Of a DNA stretch of 64,000 nt, positions 30,710-50,790 are shown piece by piece. The position numbers and the translations under genes are program-made. Under the pieces are notes generated by a model. That model was not told where the DNA came from. It saw only the letters and a program-made list of their open reading frames with translations, and ran no database searches. Location: IMG/VR virus record IMGVR_UViG_3300032224_000970, positions 32,001 through 96,000 of that record; one strand, given 5' to 3'. The DNA is from a virus. Positions within the stretch are counted from its first letter, which is position 1; the number at the start of each line of letters is the position of its first letter.

Positions 30710-32284
30710 ATGCAGATTTTTGGATTTGAGTTAAAGAGAAAAAAAGCTGGGTTGGATGTAGGGAGTGTTGTAACTCCCTCATCCGACGATGGCTCTACAG
30801 TTGTAGCCAGTGCTAGTGCTTATTATGGCATGGTTATGGACGTCGAAGGTGTCGTTAAGAATGAGAATGATTTAATTCGCAGATATCGCGAGGCAGCACA
30901 ATATGCTGACTGTGATGCAGCTATTGAAGATATTGTTAACGAAACGATTGTTACTGATGGTAATGATCAACCAGTAAAAATTAATCTTGATAAACTAAAG
31001 GTTGGCGAACCTATCAAGAAAAAGATACGTGAAGAATTTGATAATGTCTTGAGACTTTATAATTTTGATTACAAAGGTCATGACATTTTCCGCTCATGGT
31101 ATATTGACGGACGTCTCTACTACCAAATTTTGATTGATGACAATAACCCAAAAGCAGGTATTGTCGAGATGCGTTACATTGATCCTCGCAAAATTCGTAG
31201 GATTAAAAATGTAACAAAGGAAAGAACTCCATCAGGTGTGGAGGTTATAAAGGCAATAGAAGAGTATTTCCTTTATAACGATAAAGGTATTATGGAGCAA
31301 ACAACGCAGGGTGTGAAACTACCGATTGATTCTGTAGTATTTTGCAACTCTGGTTTAATGGATGCTAATACTGGAATGACACTTTCTGCATTGCATAAAG
31401 CAATCAAACCAGTTAACCAGTTAAAGATGATTGAGGATGCGGTAGTTATCTATCGTATTTCACGTGCTCCAGAACGTAGAGTGTTCTACGTTGACGTAGG
31501 TAACCTTCCAAAGTTGAAGGCTGAGCAATACGTTAATGATATGATGAACAAGTTTAGAAATAAAATTGTTTATGATGCAGTAACTGGTGAAGTACGTGAC
31601 AATAAGAAGCATCTATCAATGATGGAAGACTTCTGGATGCCACGTCGTGAAGGTGGCAAAGGTACTGAGATTACTACACTTCCAGGTGGACAGAATTTAG
31701 GTGATATTCAAGATATCGAATATTTCCAAAGAAAATTATACATGGCATTAAACGTGCCTATCTCGAGAATGATTCCATCGCAAGGTTTTAGCCTTGGACG
31801 TACTCAAGAGATTACTCGAGATGAAATTAAGTTTAACAAGTTTATTGTAAGACAACGTAAAAAGTTTGCAGCACTGTTTTCACATACGTTGCGTGTTCAG
31901 CTGGCATTGAAAGGTATTATTCGTGCAGATGAGTGGGAAGATATGGAACACTACATCGAGTATGATTATAACCAAGACAATCACTTCACTGAATTAAAAG
32001 ATAATGAATTGATGCAGACTAGGGTTTCTATGCTGCAGTTAGTTGATCCTTATGTTGGTAAGTATTATTCATCTAAGTGGGTTCGTAAGAATATCCTACA
32101 ACAGACTGATGAAGATATGGCTGAGATGGATAAAGATATGGATCAAGATAGGAAGAATCAAGTTGAACAAGCAGATCATGAAGGAATGATAGCTGGTGTT
32201 ACACAAACTGCTCAGCAAAATTATTTGCAGCAAAATGCGCCACCAGAAACACAAGAAGCACCTACAAGTAAACAGGAGAAATAA
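30710..32284 (+). CDS. gp20: Portal protein gp20
   Basis: LHKAIKPVNQLKMIEDAVVIYRISRAPERRVFYVDVGNLPK; EDFWMPRREGGKGTEITTLPGG. Confidence 0.96.
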   Translation: MQIFGFELKRKKAGLDVGSVVTPSSDDGSTVVASASAYYGMVMDVEGVVKNENDLIRRYREAAQYADCDAAIEDIVNETIVTDGNDQPVKINLDKLKVGEPIKKKIREEFDNVLRLYNFDYKGHDIFRSWYIDGRLYYQILIDDNNPKAGIVEMRYIDPRKIRRIKNVTKERTPSGVEVIKAIEEYFLYNDKGIMEQTTQGVKLPIDSVVFCNSGLMDANTGMTLSALHKAIKPVNQLKMIEDAVVIYRISRAPERRVFYVDVGNLPKLKAEQYVNDMMNKFRNKIVYDAVTGEVRDNKKHLSMMEDFWMPRREGGKGTEITTLPGGQNLGDIQDIEYFQRKLYMALNVPISRMIPSQGFSLGRTQEITRDEIKFNKFIVRQRKKFAALFSHTLRVQLALKGIIRADEWEDMEHYIEYDYNQDNHFTELKDNELMQTRVSMLQLVDPYVGKYYSSKWVRKNILQQTDEDMAEMDKDMDQDRKNQVEQADHEGMIAGVTQTAQQNYLQQNAPPETQEAPTSKQEK

Positions 32285-45293: not shown

Positions 45294-45373
45294 CCTTTAA
45301 AATCAATGACTTACGCATTCCCCTACCCTCTGTAGGGGAATCGCTTTACTTTAATTCAACTTTAGGGCATAAT
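45294..45373 (+). promoter_or_regulatory. Cassette copy 1: IHF-consensus site + hairpin + sigma70 promoter
   Basis: AATCAATGACTTA 45301-45313 (WATCAA-N4-TTR); hairpin TTCCCCTAC/GTAGGGGAA 45318-45340; TTTACT-17-CATAAT 45345-45373. Confidence 0.75.
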
Positions 45374-45406: not shown

Positions 45407-45601
45407 ATGTGGGACGACTTTAGCGACTACGAGCTAGTCGAGTTGGCTGGCTCTTATGGTCTTGAAGATTCAGTGGTCTTTGCAAACGATTTGAGTCTTG
45501 CAAACCGAGCCGAAGTAGAGAAGTTGTTGACTCTCGCTGAATATGACCTTGCCTTCCCGATTGAAATACTTGACAATAATTCAGAAGTAGAGTATAATTG
45601 A
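45407..45601 (+). CDS. Small acidic early protein
   Basis: 64 aa, AAGGGA SD, directly behind an early promoter. Confidence 0.65.
   Translation: MWDDFSDYELVELAGSYGLEDSVVFANDLSLANRAEVEKLLTLAEYDLAFPIEILDNNSEVEYN
45570..45598 (+). promoter_or_regulatory. Consensus sigma70 promoter
   Basis: TTGACA-17 nt-TATAAT. Confidence 0.9.
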
Positions 45602-45623
45602 GTTATACACAAAGGACTATATT

Positions 45624-47813
45624 ATGAAAATGAATTCAGTTGACCTCGCTGCAAAACTTCTTGCAAACGAAAACATCACTGTGGTGCGTGCGAATGTTAG
45701 TACCGCATCCTTTGACATCAAATCCCGTGTTCTCACACTTCCGCAATGGAAGGACATGACTCCCGAACAAGAGCAGATGCTTGTCGGTCATGAAGTTGGA
45801 CACGCACTCTACACAACCGAAGAATATAGCGATAGCGTTAAAGAACAAATGTCGCTAATGGGTTACCTCAATGTGATCGAAGATGTACGCATCGAGAAAC
45901 TTATGAAGCGAGAGTATCCTGGTATCCGTAAGGTGATGGCTGAGGGTTATCGTCAGCTGAATGAAAAAGACTTTTTTGGTATCTCTAAAATTCCAGATCT
46001 GTCCTCACTCAATCTGATCGACCGCATCAACCTATACTTCAAAGCTGGTTATCAGTGTGGTGTTCGATTCACTGCTGAAGAGAAAGTGCTTGTAGATGCA
46101 GTTGAACGTACCGAATCTGTAGAAGAAGTTATTGACCTTGCGAAGAAGGTATATGACTTCTCGAAGGCATCTGCCGAGAAGAAAATGAGTGAGCGTAAAC
46201 TCAACATCACTGCAGAAGATCTACAAGAACAAGAAGATGAATTTGATGAATTTAATGACAATCTTGATTATGAAGATTTGATTGCTGATGGTGAGATCGA
46301 TCCTGATCTTGATGCGGAAGACGATTACAATCGTACACCATCTATCGGTCGTGATATGCGCACTCCCGAACAGAAAGAAGCTGATAGCAAAGCACAAGAA
46401 GAAAAACAAATAGAGAAAGAGTTGGAGTCTATCACCGAAAAAACATTCCAAGAAAAATTGGAAGCACTTGCTGATACTGATACTGAATACTTCTACTACA
46501 ACTTAGAAGAGAACTACAAGTTTGATCCTATCGTTGACTACAAACGTATTTTGCGTGAGACTGTTTTAGTAGAAGACCAGCTGAAAGGAAATGCAGCTGC
46601 TAAAGAAAAATTGGAACAGTTTAAGGTTGACTCTTCACGTATTGTGAGTTACTTAATCAAAGAATTTGAGATGCGTAAGAGTGCGACTCTTTACAAACGT
46701 GCTCAGGTCTCTAAGAGTGGTTCTCTGGATATGACCAAAGTTTGGTCTTACAAATTGAATGAGGATTTGTTCAAACGTGTAACTACCATCCCTCAGGGTA
46801 AAAACCATGGTATGGTTTTCTTGCTTGACTGGTCTGGTTCTATGGATTATGTTTTGAATGACACTATGAAACAGGTAATTAGTCTTGCGATGTTCTGCCA
46901 TCGTGCGCAAATTCCTTATCAGGTTCTTGCATTCTCATCACAGTACTCAATCTTTGGTGATGATACTGGTTACAAGATGAATGATCTTAGACGTGAGTTC
47001 TACCATTCAAACAAAGATGAAAAATTGAATTCCAAAATTTCAAAACTTGGTAATGCTGTAAATGCATTCGCACTGTTGGAATTGTTCTCTAGCAAAATGA
47101 GTAACGTAGAATTCAATACAATGATGCGTCGTTTCATTGACCCATATATGCTGCGTTACATTCCAGGTAACCAGTATACAACTGGTGGTACACCATTGAA
47201 CGAAGCACTCGGTTATATGGTGTCTTACTTGCCGAAGTTTGCCAAAACTAACAACGTGGAAAAAATGTCACTGATTACATTGACAGATGGCGAAGGTCAT
47301 ATGCTTGACACTGATAATGGTACTCGATTCAAGAGTTTTGGATATAACAATGACTACAGCAAGAAAAGAAATATGCGTCACTTCTTGCAAGATCCGCAAA
47401 CGAAAAAGACATATGAGGTTGCTGATAATGGTTTCAGTCAAACCGAATCGATTATCCGTATGATGAAAGATCGTTATAACATTAACATCATTGGCTTCTA
47501 TATCTGCGAGAATGGTCGTCGTGCACTGGGTAATGCTATTCGTGCAAACATTCCAGGCTATGCTGGTAGCGTTGATGTGTTGGTTGACATCTGGCGTAAC
47601 CAATTTCGTGACTATGGTTTTGCTTCAGTCAAGAGCAGTGGACGTGATGACCTGTTTATTGTTCCTATGAACAAACTCAAAGTTGAGGATGGTGAAATGG
47701 AAGTTGCGGAGAAGCAAACTGCAAAACAGATTGCAAGGTCTTTCACCAAACACCTGACTGGACGCAAGACTTCTCGAGTCCTGTTGAACCAGTTTATCGG
47801 CTACGTAGCGTAG
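45624..47813 (+). CDS. CobT-like protein: HEXXH metallopeptidase-like domain + acidic linker + vWA domain
   Basis: HEVGH, NVIEDVRIE, MIDAS DWSGS, GGTPL, LTDGE. Confidence 0.85.
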   Translation: MKMNSVDLAAKLLANENITVVRANVSTASFDIKSRVLTLPQWKDMTPEQEQMLVGHEVGHALYTTEEYSDSVKEQMSLMGYLNVIEDVRIEKLMKREYPGIRKVMAEGYRQLNEKDFFGISKIPDLSSLNLIDRINLYFKAGYQCGVRFTAEEKVLVDAVERTESVEEVIDLAKKVYDFSKASAEKKMSERKLNITAEDLQEQEDEFDEFNDNLDYEDLIADGEIDPDLDAEDDYNRTPSIGRDMRTPEQKEADSKAQEEKQIEKELESITEKTFQEKLEALADTDTEYFYYNLEENYKFDPIVDYKRILRETVLVEDQLKGNAAAKEKLEQFKVDSSRIVSYLIKEFEMRKSATLYKRAQVSKSGSLDMTKVWSYKLNEDLFKRVTTIPQGKNHGMVFLLDWSGSMDYVLNDTMKQVISLAMFCHRAQIPYQVLAFSSQYSIFGDDTGYKMNDLRREFYHSNKDEKLNSKISKLGNAVNAFALLELFSSKMSNVEFNTMMRRFIDPYMLRYIPGNQYTTGGTPLNEALGYMVSYLPKFAKTNNVEKMSLITLTDGEGHMLDTDNGTRFKSFGYNNDYSKKRNMRHFLQDPQTKKTYEVADNGFSQTESIIRMMKDRYNINIIGFYICENGRRALGNAIRANIPGYAGSVDVLVDIWRNQFRDYGFASVKSSGRDDLFIVPMNKLKVEDGEMEVAEKQTAKQIARSFTKHLTGRKTSRVLLNQFIGYVA

Positions 47814-47824
47814 AGAGGGCTAAA

Positions 47825-47886
47825 AAAGTCCTTTAAAATCAATGACTTACGGAGTGCTTTACTTTAATTCAGAACTAGGGTATAAT
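47825..47886 (+). promoter_or_regulatory. Cassette copy 2: IHF-consensus site + sigma70 promoter
   Basis: AATCAATGACTTA 47837-47849; TTTACT-17-TATAAT 47858-47886. Confidence 0.8.
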
Positions 47887-47935
47887 TCTCTTGTAGGCTT
47901 GTGAAATGTTGTTAACTTTATGATGGAGAAAATTG

Positions 47936-49093
47936 ATGGCTAAAATTACCGAAGGTCAGAAGGCAGTTTTTGAAGAGAAACTCTTTGCAAAATTTCCTGA
48001 TGTCAAAACCACTAAGACTGTGACACGTAAACAGTTGCTTGAGATTCGTGAGGAAATGGGTAACCAGTTCCATCCTTTGTGGCTCATGCAAAATGTTATC
48101 GGTCGTGGCTTGTATGCAATCGATGGTGGTGCAGCTACCCCTGTCGTTATCGGCAATACCGTAACTAAACCTGTACAGAAAGCAGAATCATTCGTGGTTG
48201 ATTATACTGATATTGATGCGTTGATCCCGAAGAAGGATTCAAATTTTGTTCCTTTCGGTAACTTTTCTGATGTTGAAAACATTATCAAGGCAGGTATTTT
48301 TTATCCTTCCTACATCAGTGGTCCTACTGGGAATGGTAAGTCAACGATGATTGAGCAGATCTGTGCCAAGCACAAGAAGCCACTCATTCGTGTTAACCTG
48401 AATATGATGACTGACGAAGAACAGCTGATCGGTTCAAAAACACTGATCGAAGGTAACGTGCAGATCGTTGAGGGTCCAGTCCTGATTGCAATGCGCACTG
48501 GTTGCACTTTGCTGCTTGACGAAATTGACGCTGGCTCTGCAAATACTTTGCTGTGCTTGCAACCGATTCTTGAGGGTAAGCCATATTACTTCAAACTCAA
48601 GAATGAAATGATTGTTCCTGCTGCTGGTTTCAATATCATTGCAACTGCGAACACTAAGGGTAAAGGTTCAGACGATGGTCGTTACATCGGTACCAACGTG
48701 CTGAACGAAGCATTCTTGGAACGATTTGCTGTTACATTCGAACAAGAATATCCGAATGCCAAAGTTGAAGTTAAGATTATCAAGAATCTGATGGAAACTT
48801 ATGCATGTGTTGACGAAGAGTTTGCAAATACCCTTGTTAAGTGGGCTGAAGCAATTCGTCGCACCTTTGATGATGGTGGTGTGGATGAGACGATCACGAC
48901 TCGTCGTATGACTCATATCGTTCGTGCCTTTGCAATCTTCAAAGACCGTAAGAAGGCAGTTGAACTTTGCTGCAATCGTTTTGACTCTGCAACGAAACTT
49001 GCATTCCAGGATCTGTTTGAGAAGGTATCAAACCCTGTGGTCGAGCCAGTTGCAGCACCTCAACCGACTGCAACAGATGAAGTGCCATTTTAA
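47936..49093 (+). CDS. CobS-like MoxR AAA+ ATPase with N-terminal putative DNA-binding domain
   Basis: GPTGNGKS, LLLDEID, ATANTKGKGSDDGRYIGTNVLNEAFLERF, ITTRR. Confidence 0.9.
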   Translation: MAKITEGQKAVFEEKLFAKFPDVKTTKTVTRKQLLEIREEMGNQFHPLWLMQNVIGRGLYAIDGGAATPVVIGNTVTKPVQKAESFVVDYTDIDALIPKKDSNFVPFGNFSDVENIIKAGIFYPSYISGPTGNGKSTMIEQICAKHKKPLIRVNLNMMTDEEQLIGSKTLIEGNVQIVEGPVLIAMRTGCTLLLDEIDAGSANTLLCLQPILEGKPYYFKLKNEMIVPAAGFNIIATANTKGKGSDDGRYIGTNVLNEAFLERFAVTFEQEYPNAKVEVKIIKNLMETYACVDEEFANTLVKWAEAIRRTFDDGGVDETITTRRMTHIVRAFAIFKDRKKAVELCCNRFDSATKLAFQDLFEKVSNPVVEPVAAPQPTATDEVPF

Positions 49094-49095
49094 AT

Positions 49096-49124
49096 TTGAC
49101 ATTTATTCAAAAGTGTAGTATACT
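49096..49124 (+). promoter_or_regulatory. sigma70 promoter
   Basis: TTGACA-17 nt-TATACT. Confidence 0.88.
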
Positions 49125-49154
49125 TCTATTGTTAACTTGATAAAGGAATTGATT

Positions 49155-49637
49155 ATGAAAAAATTTGCTGACCTGTCCAAAGCCCAGAAACAATTTTGCG
49201 TGCGTATTTTGGATGTATGTCCTCAATACCGTAAGCAGAAAGATCTGACATGGAAGGAACTGCTTGCTGGTTACTTCTTGCTGAAAGACCAACGTAAGCA
49301 AACTGGCGAGAAGATTGGTTTCCCGATGTGGCTTCAGAAAACTAATATCGTGGGACGTGGTACTTATCAAATGCCATGGCCAACTGATAAAGAACTTTCT
49401 GACTACGTCGCAGCCAAGACTGCACCTAAAGCTGTTAAGCAGCCGAAGGTTGCCAAAGTCAAGGTAGCCAAAGTTAAAGCAACTAAGACTGTAGCAAAAT
49501 CTAAACCTGCTGCACCTGTTGCTGATACGGATCTCGGTAAGTCTCGTTTGCAATCTATCATCGATGACTCAGTGTCTCATGATGCAGACGAAGAAGACTT
49601 TAACCAGATCCTGCGTGAGAATGGTATCGAAGTCTAA
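49155..49637 (+). CDS. Putative DNA-binding protein: paralog of the CobS-like N-domain + K/A/P/V-rich tail
   Basis: FPMWLQKTNIVGRGTY matches HPLWLMQNVIGRGLY of the upstream ATPase; AAKTAPKAVKQPKVAKVKVAKVKATK; acidic end. AAGGA SD before the ATG at 49155. Confidence 0.65.
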   Translation: MKKFADLSKAQKQFCVRILDVCPQYRKQKDLTWKELLAGYFLLKDQRKQTGEKIGFPMWLQKTNIVGRGTYQMPWPTDKELSDYVAAKTAPKAVKQPKVAKVKVAKVKATKTVAKSKPAAPVADTDLGKSRLQSIIDDSVSHDADEEDFNQILRENGIEV

Positions 49638-49652
49638 TTTTAGATTTCTCTA

Positions 49653-49697
49653 ATCGGGTAGAGGGAAAGCCATCCCCTCTCCCGATCTTTTTATTTT
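49653..49697 (+). terminator. Rho-independent terminator
   Basis: ATCGGG-t-AGAGGG...CCCTCT-CCCGAT followed by CTTTTTATTTT. Confidence 0.75.
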
Positions 49698-49725
49698 GAT
49701 GGCGTGTTAATTATGGAGACATTAT

Positions 49726-49995
49726 ATGTCCAAACAAGCAAAGTTGTTGTCTTATTTGCAGTCTGGTAATGAAGTGACTGTTAAACAGATTTCTGGTGTG
49801 TTCGGTATCGCTCACCCAGCATCTGCAATTCGTAACCTACGTGAGCAAGGCTACTGCGTTTACACTAACGCTGCTAAACTCTCTGATGGTACTCGTACTA
49901 CTAAGTACCGTATCGGTGCTCCAAGCAAGCGTATGATTCGTCTCGTGAATCTTATCGCTGGTGCATCTGCTTTTACCGCACAGCGTAAAGGCTAA
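49726..49995 (+). CDS. Winged helix-turn-helix protein
   Basis: LL.YL.SG..VT..QI...FGI......I..LR.QGY.VY.N...KYRIG pattern. Confidence 0.75.
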   Translation: MSKQAKLLSYLQSGNEVTVKQISGVFGIAHPASAIRNLREQGYCVYTNAAKLSDGTRTTKYRIGAPSKRMIRLVNLIAGASAFTAQRKG

Positions 49996-50004
49996 TTGAG
50001 TAAC

Positions 50005-50040
50005 TGAGTCTGGGTATCTCTAGGTACTCAGACTCATTTT
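50005..50040 (+). terminator. Long hairpin / terminator
   Basis: TGAGTCTGGGTATC-tcta-GGTACTCAGACTCA followed by TTTT. Confidence 0.7.
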
Positions 50041-50053
50041 ATTATGGGATACT

Positions 50054-50392
50054 ATGGTAACTAAACAAGAAATAGAGAAGTCCCAAACAGCTACGACTGG
50101 TGGGCGAAAATTTGATGGTAACAAACTTGAATATGGTTTGTTACCTCCACTTGCATTGAAAGCAACAGTAGAGATTCTGACTTTCGGTGCACAAAAATAT
50201 GAACGGGACAACTGGATACGTGTTCCCGATTCAAAGCGTAGATACTTTGACGCAATGCAAAGACATCTATGGGCATGGAAAGAGGGAGAACAAAACGATC
50301 CCGAGACTGGTAAGAATCACTTGGCGCATGCAATGTGCTGCCTAATGTTCTTGTATGAGCATGATGTAAAGTATTCAAAGGATGAAAAATGA
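50054..50392 (+). CDS. dATP/dGTP diphosphohydrolase-like protein (DUF5664 family)
   Basis: GRKFDGNK..Y.LLP; LTFGA.KY..DNW; AM.RHL.AW..GE..DPETG..HLAHA.CCL.FL. Confidence 0.8.
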   Translation: MVTKQEIEKSQTATTGGRKFDGNKLEYGLLPPLALKATVEILTFGAQKYERDNWIRVPDSKRRYFDAMQRHLWAWKEGEQNDPETGKNHLAHAMCCLMFLYEHDVKYSKDEK

Positions 50393-50790
50393 TTGAGTGC
50401 ATCATAGCAGGTGATAGTATCGCAGTCGGCATTGCTAATGTTCGTAAAGAATGTGTTGCGTATGCAAAGGGTGGTATCAACTCAAAGAACTGGTTGAACA
50501 GCAATATTCAAAACACACCATTGGTCGCTAAGCATGTTATCATCTCTCTTGGATCTAATGACCACAAAGGAATCAAGACAGAAGAAGAACTGCGTACGAT
50601 TCGCAAACTAACAAATGCTGATAGAGTATTTTGGGTTATGCCTAGCACCAAGTTTCCAATTCAAAGAGAAGCAATCGTGAAGATTGCCAATGAATATCAC
50701 GATACTGTTTTGAGAACAGAAAGAATGCAAGAAGATAATGTCCATCCTTCTTGGGCAGGATATAAAGAAATTGCCAAAGCAACTGAATAA
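50389..50790 (+). CDS. Minimal SGNH/GDSL hydrolase
   Basis: GDSIA, G, SLGSND and DNVHP blocks. Confidence 0.8.
   Translation: MIECIIAGDSIAVGIANVRKECVAYAKGGINSKNWLNSNIQNTPLVAKHVIISLGSNDHKGIKTEEELRTIRKLTNADRVFWVMPSTKFPIQREAIVKIANEYHDTVLRTERMQEDNVHPSWAGYKEIAKATE

Follow-up and report, generated by a model that had tools for sequence, protein, structure and literature searches.

An ancient stand-alone paralog of the tethered head of a MoxR-class ATPase in a T4-like aquatic myovirus

A pair of genes for a MoxR AAA+ ATPase and a metallopeptidase joined to a von Willebrand factor A (vWA) domain belongs to the core gene set of T4-like phages of cyanobacteria and SAR11. A role as a virion-assembly chaperone–protease has been proposed for the pair (Iyer, Anantharaman, Krishnan, Burroughs, and Aravind 2021, PMC7824862), it has been proposed to act as a CobST that hijacks the host CobN (Liu et al. 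2021, PMC8651126), and a transposon screen found the phage MoxR ATPase bas54_0063 to be needed against the predicted defence system DS-28 (preprint 10.1101/2025.11.20.689424). The same two large proteins, the core 'CobS' and 'peptidase' of Kyanoviridae, stand at the center of the locus considered here, positions 45407–49995 of a 64,000-nt window (the whole stretch of DNA that was analysed; positions 32,001–96,000 of IMG/VR record IMGVR_UViG_3300032224_000970) taken from a virus record that is complete at 159,683 bp and has terminal repeats. The locus forms a unit of five genes, probably early or middle, in a T4-like aquatic myovirus related to the pelagimyophages, and it is centered on the MoxR AAA+ and HExxH-vWA(MIDAS) pair (MIDAS, an adhesion site that depends on a metal ion), which is core to this phage family. 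In its ATPase, a disordered tether of ∼45 residues bears a small folded head, of which the gene that comes next encodes an ancient stand-alone paralog; the three reports above mention neither the head nor the free copy.

The CobS–CobT cobaltochelatase motor resembles the phage pair in its AAA+ core, which aligns with that of the phage ATPase (E 2e-31), and in having a partner with a C-terminal vWA/MIDAS domain after an acidic linker. The phage proteins differ by adding a head, a tether and a tail to the ATPase and an HExxH domain to the partner, and they fail the equivalog cut-offs of the chelatase families. A stand-alone copy of a recognition domain is also found in chloroplasts, where ClpT1 and ClpT2 are free paralogs of the ClpC N-domain that regulate an AAA+ unfoldase; the logic is the same, and the fold and the AAA+ clade are unrelated to those of the phage proteins. 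The bacterial MoxR–vWA 'ternary' conflict systems ascribed to Kaur et al. 2020 reportedly possess variable sensor heads or sensor heads diversified by diversity-generating retroelements. They are said to have in common with the window a MoxR protein, a vWA-peptidase-type partner, and an N-terminal head that evolves fast and probably determines which target is chosen, and to differ in that their heads are of other folds and no free head paralog is described, the window in turn being without a retroelement.

An earlier note on this DNA, made from the sequence alone, had aligned the N-termini of the ATPase and of its downstream neighbor by eye, and that alignment stands up to sequence, profile and structure comparison. 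The homology covers the first ∼62 residues of the ATPase (gene 47936–49093) and the first ∼75 of the free protein (gene 49155–49637). The ATPase head comprises residues 1–62 (47936–48121; this and the other parts of the unit are on the plus strand) and is followed by the disordered tether at residues 63–109 (48122–48262), where the AlphaFold2 predicted local distance difference test (pLDDT) falls to 25–38, while the head of the free protein comprises residues 1–90 (49155–49424), is basic (∼+5.5) and is modeled at pLDDT 93–97. BLASTP between the two window proteins pairs ATPase residues 3–63 with free-protein residues 11–79 at 29% identity and 53% positives (E 3e-5, for a single comparison), and hhalign of a profile of 32 ATPase heads with one of 84 free heads returns a probability of 96.4% and an E of 1.4e-9 over 61 columns. 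Common to both profiles are a Q-K near the start, a proline after helix 1, and the motifs [I/V]-T-x-K-[Q/E], P-x-W-L and N-x-V-G-R-G-x-Y. AlphaFold2 places helices of the free protein at residues 9–21, 23–27, 33–50, 60–63 and 78–89 and strands at 30–32, 65–67 and 70–72; in the ATPase head (pLDDT 70–89) it places helices at 6–19, 21–26 and 31–40 and strands at 28–30, 53–56 and 59–61. The predicted order of elements is equal in the two heads: a pair of helices comes first, then a short strand, a long helix, a helix of one turn and finally a beta-hairpin. A search of viral structure models with the free protein placed a member of its own family at the top of the ranking, followed by a phage ATPase of the AAA_5 type (E 8e-3, probability 0.97).

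The attached and free heads of the window's clade are unmixed within genomes in a tree of heads, which indicates that the duplication is old and has not been homogenized, no recent gene conversion being seen. Rates were compared as median pairwise identity among 30 non-redundant loci. By this measure the AAA+ core stands at 84%, gp45 at 76%, the C-terminal module of the free protein at 73% and the HTH_39 protein encoded next to it at 65%, as against 55% for the vWA protein and 52% for both the attached and the free head. Attached-head identity tracks that of the free head (rho 0.48) and of the vWA protein (rho 0.47) best. Since the heads are far less conserved than the motor core, they behave like specificity determinants, a recognition module on a conserved motor.

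The motor and its partner, described in the earlier note as a MoxR ATPase and a vWA-metallopeptidase, retain their catalytic motifs. The 729-residue partner (45624–47813) has an HExxH at residues 56–60, an acidic linker, and a vWA domain whose MIDAS is formed by D402-x-S404-x-S406, T523 and D555, all five of these residues being invariant in 30 sequences; HExxH and DxSxS are each present in 47/47 of the full-length copies checked. It matches the 'peptidase' family phrog_459 at E 2.8e-181 and scores 17.7 against Pfam VWA_2, under the cut-off of 27. The HExxH motif and the phrog_459 label make it a candidate zincin-type metallopeptidase, one with no match to any Pfam peptidase family; CobT is not known to carry an HExxH motif. 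The AAA+ core of the 385-residue ATPase (48263–49030), with Walker A GPTGNGKS (68/68 clade ATPases) and Walker B LLLDEID (67/68), matches Pfam AAA_5 (8e-17, 62 bits, cut-off 22) and CbbQ_C (9e-5, 23 bits, cut-off 20.6), the ATPase matches phrog_249 (E 1e-101), and the AAA_5 Walker A/B domain together with the CbbQ_C lid assigns it, by sequence, to the MoxR class. Among solved structures the core matches midasin (E 1e-43) as well as CobS. With Walker A and B, MIDAS and HExxH intact, the machine looks active. Against the NCBIfam CobS equivalog TIGR01650 the ATPase scores only 85.5 bits where 558.55 are required, and the vWA protein scores 15.1 bits against TIGR02442 (CobT/putative cobaltochelatase), with a cut-off of 779.45; the pair is nevertheless still annotated as a B12-synthesis enzyme. 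Among cultured phages, those nearest to the window in the ATPase are HTVC008M (51% identity) and Mosig, both pelagimyophages; T4-like cyanophages come next, and all belong to the Kyanoviridae.

Beyond the core, the ATPase ends in a P/E/V/A-rich tail (49031–49090; pLDDT <50, disordered in the AlphaFold2 model at about residues 369–385) whose last residues are D-E-V-P-F (49076–49090). A C-terminal [D/E]x[I/V][P/A]F is present in 65/68 clade ATPases and in most sister clades, and a disordered tail capped by [D/E]-E-[I/V]-P-F was found in loci L001 and L005–L084 and in most of L096–L163; the ATPases of HTVC008M, Mosig and cyanophage S-ShM2 have acidic tails without such a tip. In bacteria the conserved C-terminal hexapeptide DDDIPF of SSB, the protein that binds single-stranded DNA, is known as SSB-Ct and recruits genome-maintenance proteins (PMC5872125). 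On sequence, the ATPase qualifies as bearing an SSB-Ct-type tip, with acidic residues and I/V-P-F at the extreme C-terminus after a disordered P/E-rich tail, an arrangement that recalls bacterial SSB. The match is five residues long, and the OB (oligonucleotide/oligosaccharide-binding) fold of SSB has no counterpart in the window proteins.

The free protein, 160 residues long, belongs to no named family. A word-indexed search returned 211 relatives of 137–173 residues, none of them named, and an exhaustive profile search returned at least 138 family clusters at 50% identity (E <= 1e-3), nearly all of 46–232 residues. What is constant throughout the family is the head and a C-terminal tip, in which acidic residues are followed by F-x-x-[E/I]-L-x-x-x-G-I-x-[V/I/L] at the end. 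In the window's clade this module is longer and nearly invariant; here it occupies 49539–49637, forms two short helices, has invariant alignment columns and ends in G-I-E-V. Between head and module lies a disordered basic linker (residues 91–128, 49425–49538) that is 27% K, 19% A and 17% V with a net charge of ∼+7, the C-terminus being ∼−6, so that the earlier description of a K/A/V-rich segment followed by an acidic tail is accurate. The histone H1-like, nucleoid-coating role drawn from that description is weakened: the linker, which ranges from 12 to 46 residues within the clade, is basic in this clade only, sister clades having short linkers that are neutral or acidic, and nucleoid coating therefore cannot be the core function of the family. 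In its layout, with a disordered linker between a folded domain and a conserved acidic tip at the C-terminus, the free protein is like hub proteins such as SSB.

No match to the free protein was found by tblastn in 50,697 deposited phage genomes, and no cultured phage with the gene was found. ESM Atlas matches were confined to unnamed viral clusters, Pfam gave nothing consistent on 19 divergent family members, and a search for longer fused forms of the family found none, which is weak evidence. The C-module does not recur elsewhere in the phage genome beyond the free protein itself. An 87-residue open reading frame outside the window (151512–151775) ends in E-E-F-G-Y-E-I-K-K-H-F-G-V-E-V, which is loosely like the C-terminal tip, probably by chance. 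Three apparent domain swaps that set other N-termini on the same linker and C-module (P0214, P0222, P0247) are distrusted as probably chimeric or frame-shifted assemblies, since P0247 was read from a 585-bp contig only and P0214 opens with a patatin fragment. In limited searches of the literature no report was found of the head homology, the free family, its C-terminal tip, or the SSB-like tip of the ATPase tail; the fast-evolving heads, the family-wide acidic helix and tip of the free protein, and the SSB-like ATPase tail tip are new here.

The free gene keeps close company with the machine. Counting only loci with enough flank, in a close set of 81 viral loci and a divergent set of 68, the gene immediately upstream of the free one encodes a head-bearing ATPase in 64/64 close and 51/56 divergent loci (115/120 in all), the vWA gene lies upstream in 46/46 and 39/42, and HTH_39 lies downstream in 80/80 and 59/66 (139/146 in all). 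The order gp47, gp46, small acidic gene, vWA, ATPase, free head, HTH_39, diphosphohydrolase and, further on, gp45 is invariant in the 81 close loci. The free gene, for which the earlier note had suggested a synteny survey, is part of a set of five (64-residue acidic gene, HExxH-vWA, MoxR ATPase, free head, HTH_39) whose order is fixed across >100 loci. In one divergent locus (L142, 2579–7363; likewise L138, L141, L144 and L145) the free-head gene comes after UvsX (RecA-like), the helicase gp41 and a dioxygenase of the TET/JBP type. The genes for 'peptidase' and 'CobS' lie upstream of gp45 in HTVC008M, Mosig and S-ShM2, as in the window; S-ShM2 has a different ATPase N-terminus and no free gene.

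The free protein probably serves a widespread phage machine as an adaptor or regulator. More specifically, we tentatively favor, with somewhat less than even confidence, the reading that it duplicates the motor's target-recognition head and acts in trans, perhaps at sites of replication or recombination. The head would be the target-recognition module of the machine, the free paralog would bind the same target as the attached head, and it would act in trans, either as an adaptor that holds the target by its head and a partner by its C-terminal tip, or as a competitor controlling whether the motor–protease gains access. More speculatively, the target may lie at DNA or at replication/recombination complexes, the basic linker of the clade may add non-specific affinity for polyanions, and the SSB-like tip may dock the motor on readers of SSB tails. 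For the MoxR class, an accessory subunit derived as a free paralog of an AAA+ recognition domain would be of a new kind, and with a tethered fast-evolving head, a free paralog that has a docking tip, and an SSB-like tip on the motor, function becomes directly testable.

Several observations weigh against this reading. The free-family profile reaches no CobS-like ATPase at E <= 1e-3 across the whole library, so that it takes a direct comparison to detect the paralogy. The head of the ATPase itself is approximately neutral (+1.6), no significant structural match ties the head to DNA (the best Z of 4.0 is below the meaningful range), and the likeness to the SSB tip extends over five residues only. 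Sister clades lack the basic linker and have in its place one of 7–28 residues with a mean charge of −1.6. In the five divergent loci named above and in L091, where the upstream gene is unrelated and the free gene precedes HTH_39 and gp45, the free gene is not beside the ATPase, and HTVC008M and Mosig carry the head on the ATPase (by eye and at a hidden Markov model E of 0.003) with no free gene, which makes the free copy dispensable for the machine. A complex prediction of the ATPase (A2) with the free protein (A1) scored 0.00 and counts neither for nor against binding.

Whether the head is a winged helix, as the earlier note had suggested, bears directly on the speculation about DNA. The order of elements fits H1-S1-H2-H3-S2-wing-S3, and winged-helix domains (MCM8, ORC/Cdc6, cullin WHB, DpnI, Rpc5) dominate the lists of two structure searches. 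The winged-helix assignment is weak, as the best alignment, to the MCM8 winged helix 6l0o (Z 4.0, root-mean-square deviation 3.4 over 59 residues, with ORC1/Cdc6 winged-helix domains at Z 3.4–3.9), is under the noise guide of the tool, and Foldseek with the free-protein model returned nothing from the PDB at E <= 0.001. The third helix, where a recognition helix would be expected, is a single turn, and the winged helices of ORC1/Cdc6 and MCM8 are C-terminal to the AAA+ core whereas the phage head is N-terminal. One family member has a weak match to Pfam WHD_MCM8 (E 0.14), and the head has no profile similarity to the neighboring HTH_39 protein (hhalign probability <4%). Sequence-profile matches of the free protein in the PDB, namely weak acylphosphatase rows (E 0.03–0.5, spanning G-x-P-x-W-L to R-G) and a designed helix bundle, were dismissed as chance, because the model is not of a ferredoxin-like fold; a likeness to the 'RGR' DNA-binding loop of H-NS/Lsr2 was considered and dropped, as neither protein came up in the PDB profile search or in the structure lists. 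The P-x-W-L and G-R-G-x-Y motifs map to the third helix and the hairpin tip, and the free gene sits among replication/recombination genes in both of its contexts, between gp46 and gp45 in the window and beside UvsX, gp41 and TET/JBP in L142. From charge, motif positions, this neighborhood and the SSB-like tip, DNA binding by the head may be put forward as a hypothesis.

Taken to its furthest extent, the DNA-directed reading would have the core 'CobS/peptidase' pair of marine T4-like phages be a protein remodeler–protease directed at hubs of DNA transactions and not a chelatase, with the SSB-tail mimic docking the motor on readers of SSB tails and the winged-helix-like head, both attached to the motor and as a free adaptor, selecting a DNA-bound target, such that host replication, repair or defence complexes would be dismantled or reprogrammed early in infection; as a whole we consider this rather unlikely.

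It is possible, though we doubt it, that the head targets a host protein and not DNA, in which case the MoxR/vWA-peptidase would be a counter-defence or host-takeover remodeler and the free head a decoy or adaptor. Many of the winged helices in the weak structural lists, such as those of cullins (WHB), MCM and Cdt1, bind proteins, and the combination of fast heads and a fast vWA protein with a slow motor core is what an arms-race interface would be expected to produce. The requirement for bas54_0063 against DS-28 (preprint 10.1101/2025.11.20.689424) points the same way, but Bas54 is of a different phage lineage, no defence target is known for the family, and a pair that is core to a whole phage family suits housekeeping better than strain-specific counter-defence.

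That the unit is a chaperone–protease for virion assembly or protein maturation, with the free head as a co-chaperone, seems to us quite unlikely. Such a role was proposed for a MoxR/vWA pair of group 2.2 jumbo phages in which the vWA protein starts with a metallopeptidase (Iyer et al. 2021, PMC7824862), and the same paper cites a MoxR–vWA system that an archaeal virus needs to assemble its tail. The unit, however, lies among replication genes between gp46/47 and gp45/44, outside the structural block, its promoters are sigma70-like, and none of the loci links it to a structural gene.

HTH_39 is the most constant neighbor of the free gene, the two remain together before gp45 in L091 with an unrelated gene upstream, and a conserved RNA structure lies between them. 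The free protein could accordingly work chiefly with HTH_39, for example as a regulator pair in middle transcription or replication, and share only ancestry with the ATPase head. This is improbable given that the ATPase linkage holds in 115/120 informative loci, that the free gene occurs without both neighbors in five loci, and that HTVC008M has an apparent HTH_39 homologue and no free gene.

Least probable is that the pair is a genuine cobaltochelatase motor of the CobS/CobT kind, which takes over host CobN to raise the supply of B12 and uses the head to dock on CobN or CobT: the annotation usual in databases (phrog_249 'porphyrin biosynthesis'), the proposal of Liu et al. 2021 (PMC8651126) and the match of solved CobS structures to the core speak for it, but both proteins fall far short of the equivalog thresholds, HExxH is present on all 47 full-length vWA copies, midasin AAA domains match better than CobS, and solved CobS aligns only to residues 84–362, hence without the head and tail.

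The unit is set between T4-like replication genes, following gp47 and gp46 (Mre11/Rad50-like) and preceding, after a dATP/dGTP diphosphohydrolase-like and an SGNH-like gene, gp45 and gp44. It is bounded upstream by a terminator-like hairpin after gp46 (45317–45341, a 10-bp stem with 5 G-C pairs) and downstream by a strong terminator-like hairpin with a 14-bp stem (50005–50036). In T4 the gp46–gp45 interval holds 45.2 and rpbA; RpbA was tried as a relative of the free protein and rejected (hhalign probability 0.2%). Gene starts were corrected to the ATG at 47936 after GGAGA for the ATPase and the ATG at 49155 after AAGGAA for the free gene.

The earlier note had given each of the first four genes its own sigma70 promoter, and sigma70-like sites are indeed present at 45345–45373 (9/12), at 45570–45598 upstream of the vWA gene (12/12, a perfect consensus), at 47858–47886 (10/12) and at 49096–49124 upstream of the free-head gene (11/12). 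Such sites are not in excess, however, the region holding 15 in total against 12.5 +/- 3.8 in shuffled sequence. The observation that two of them sit in a cassette with a site for integration host factor (IHF) is upheld: 45345 and 47858 have a common upstream cassette with a box, AATCAATGACTTA, that matches the IHF consensus WATCAANNNNTTR and lies at 45301–45313 in the first copy (cassette 45301–45373) and at 47837–47849 in the second (47837–47886). The two near-identical cassettes (TCCTTTAAAATCAATGACTTACG, then a TTTACT-17-[C/T]ATAAT promoter) precede the 64-residue acidic gene and the ATPase gene.

The RNA structure between the free gene and HTH_39 is a terminator-like hairpin with a U-run (49654–49703), the loop of which (GCCATC, 49669–49674) is complementary to GATGGC (49698–49703), part of a conserved GATGG[C/T] just 5' of the HTH_39 ribosome-binding site. 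Across 26 relatives the stem covaries, 6/6 predicted pairs being changed on both sides, while the loop stays invariant. It is likely that the element combines a terminator with a pseudoknot-type control of translation or read-through.

The first gene of the unit (45407–45601) encodes a strongly acidic protein of 64 residues, ∼16 acidic against 2 basic, which in the window's clade always lies upstream of the vWA gene. It is 39–70% identical across related loci of the clade and has no match in Pfam, PHROG or NCBIfam; its composition recalls small acidic phage proteins of the DNA-mimic type. The last gene (49726–49995) encodes an 89-residue basic (+10) winged-helix protein, in agreement with the winged helix-turn-helix gene that the earlier note had placed after the free-head gene (Pfam HTH_39, 27.5 bits, cut-off 21.3). 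In HTVC008M, gp110 (L085, 6475–6810; a hypothetical protein of 111 residues) is two genes after cobS and behind a gene for phage ribosomal protein S21, and resembles this HTH_39 protein by eye only, in the motifs L-R-E-x-G-Y-C-V-Y and Y-R-I-G-x-P-S-K. Between the unit and gp45, window positions 50054–50790 hold a gene for a dATP/dGTP diphosphohydrolase N-domain (PF18909, E 5e-34), which is 74–96% identical in nearly all related loci, and a weakly SGNH/GDSL-like gene that is present in one pair of related loci only (L017).

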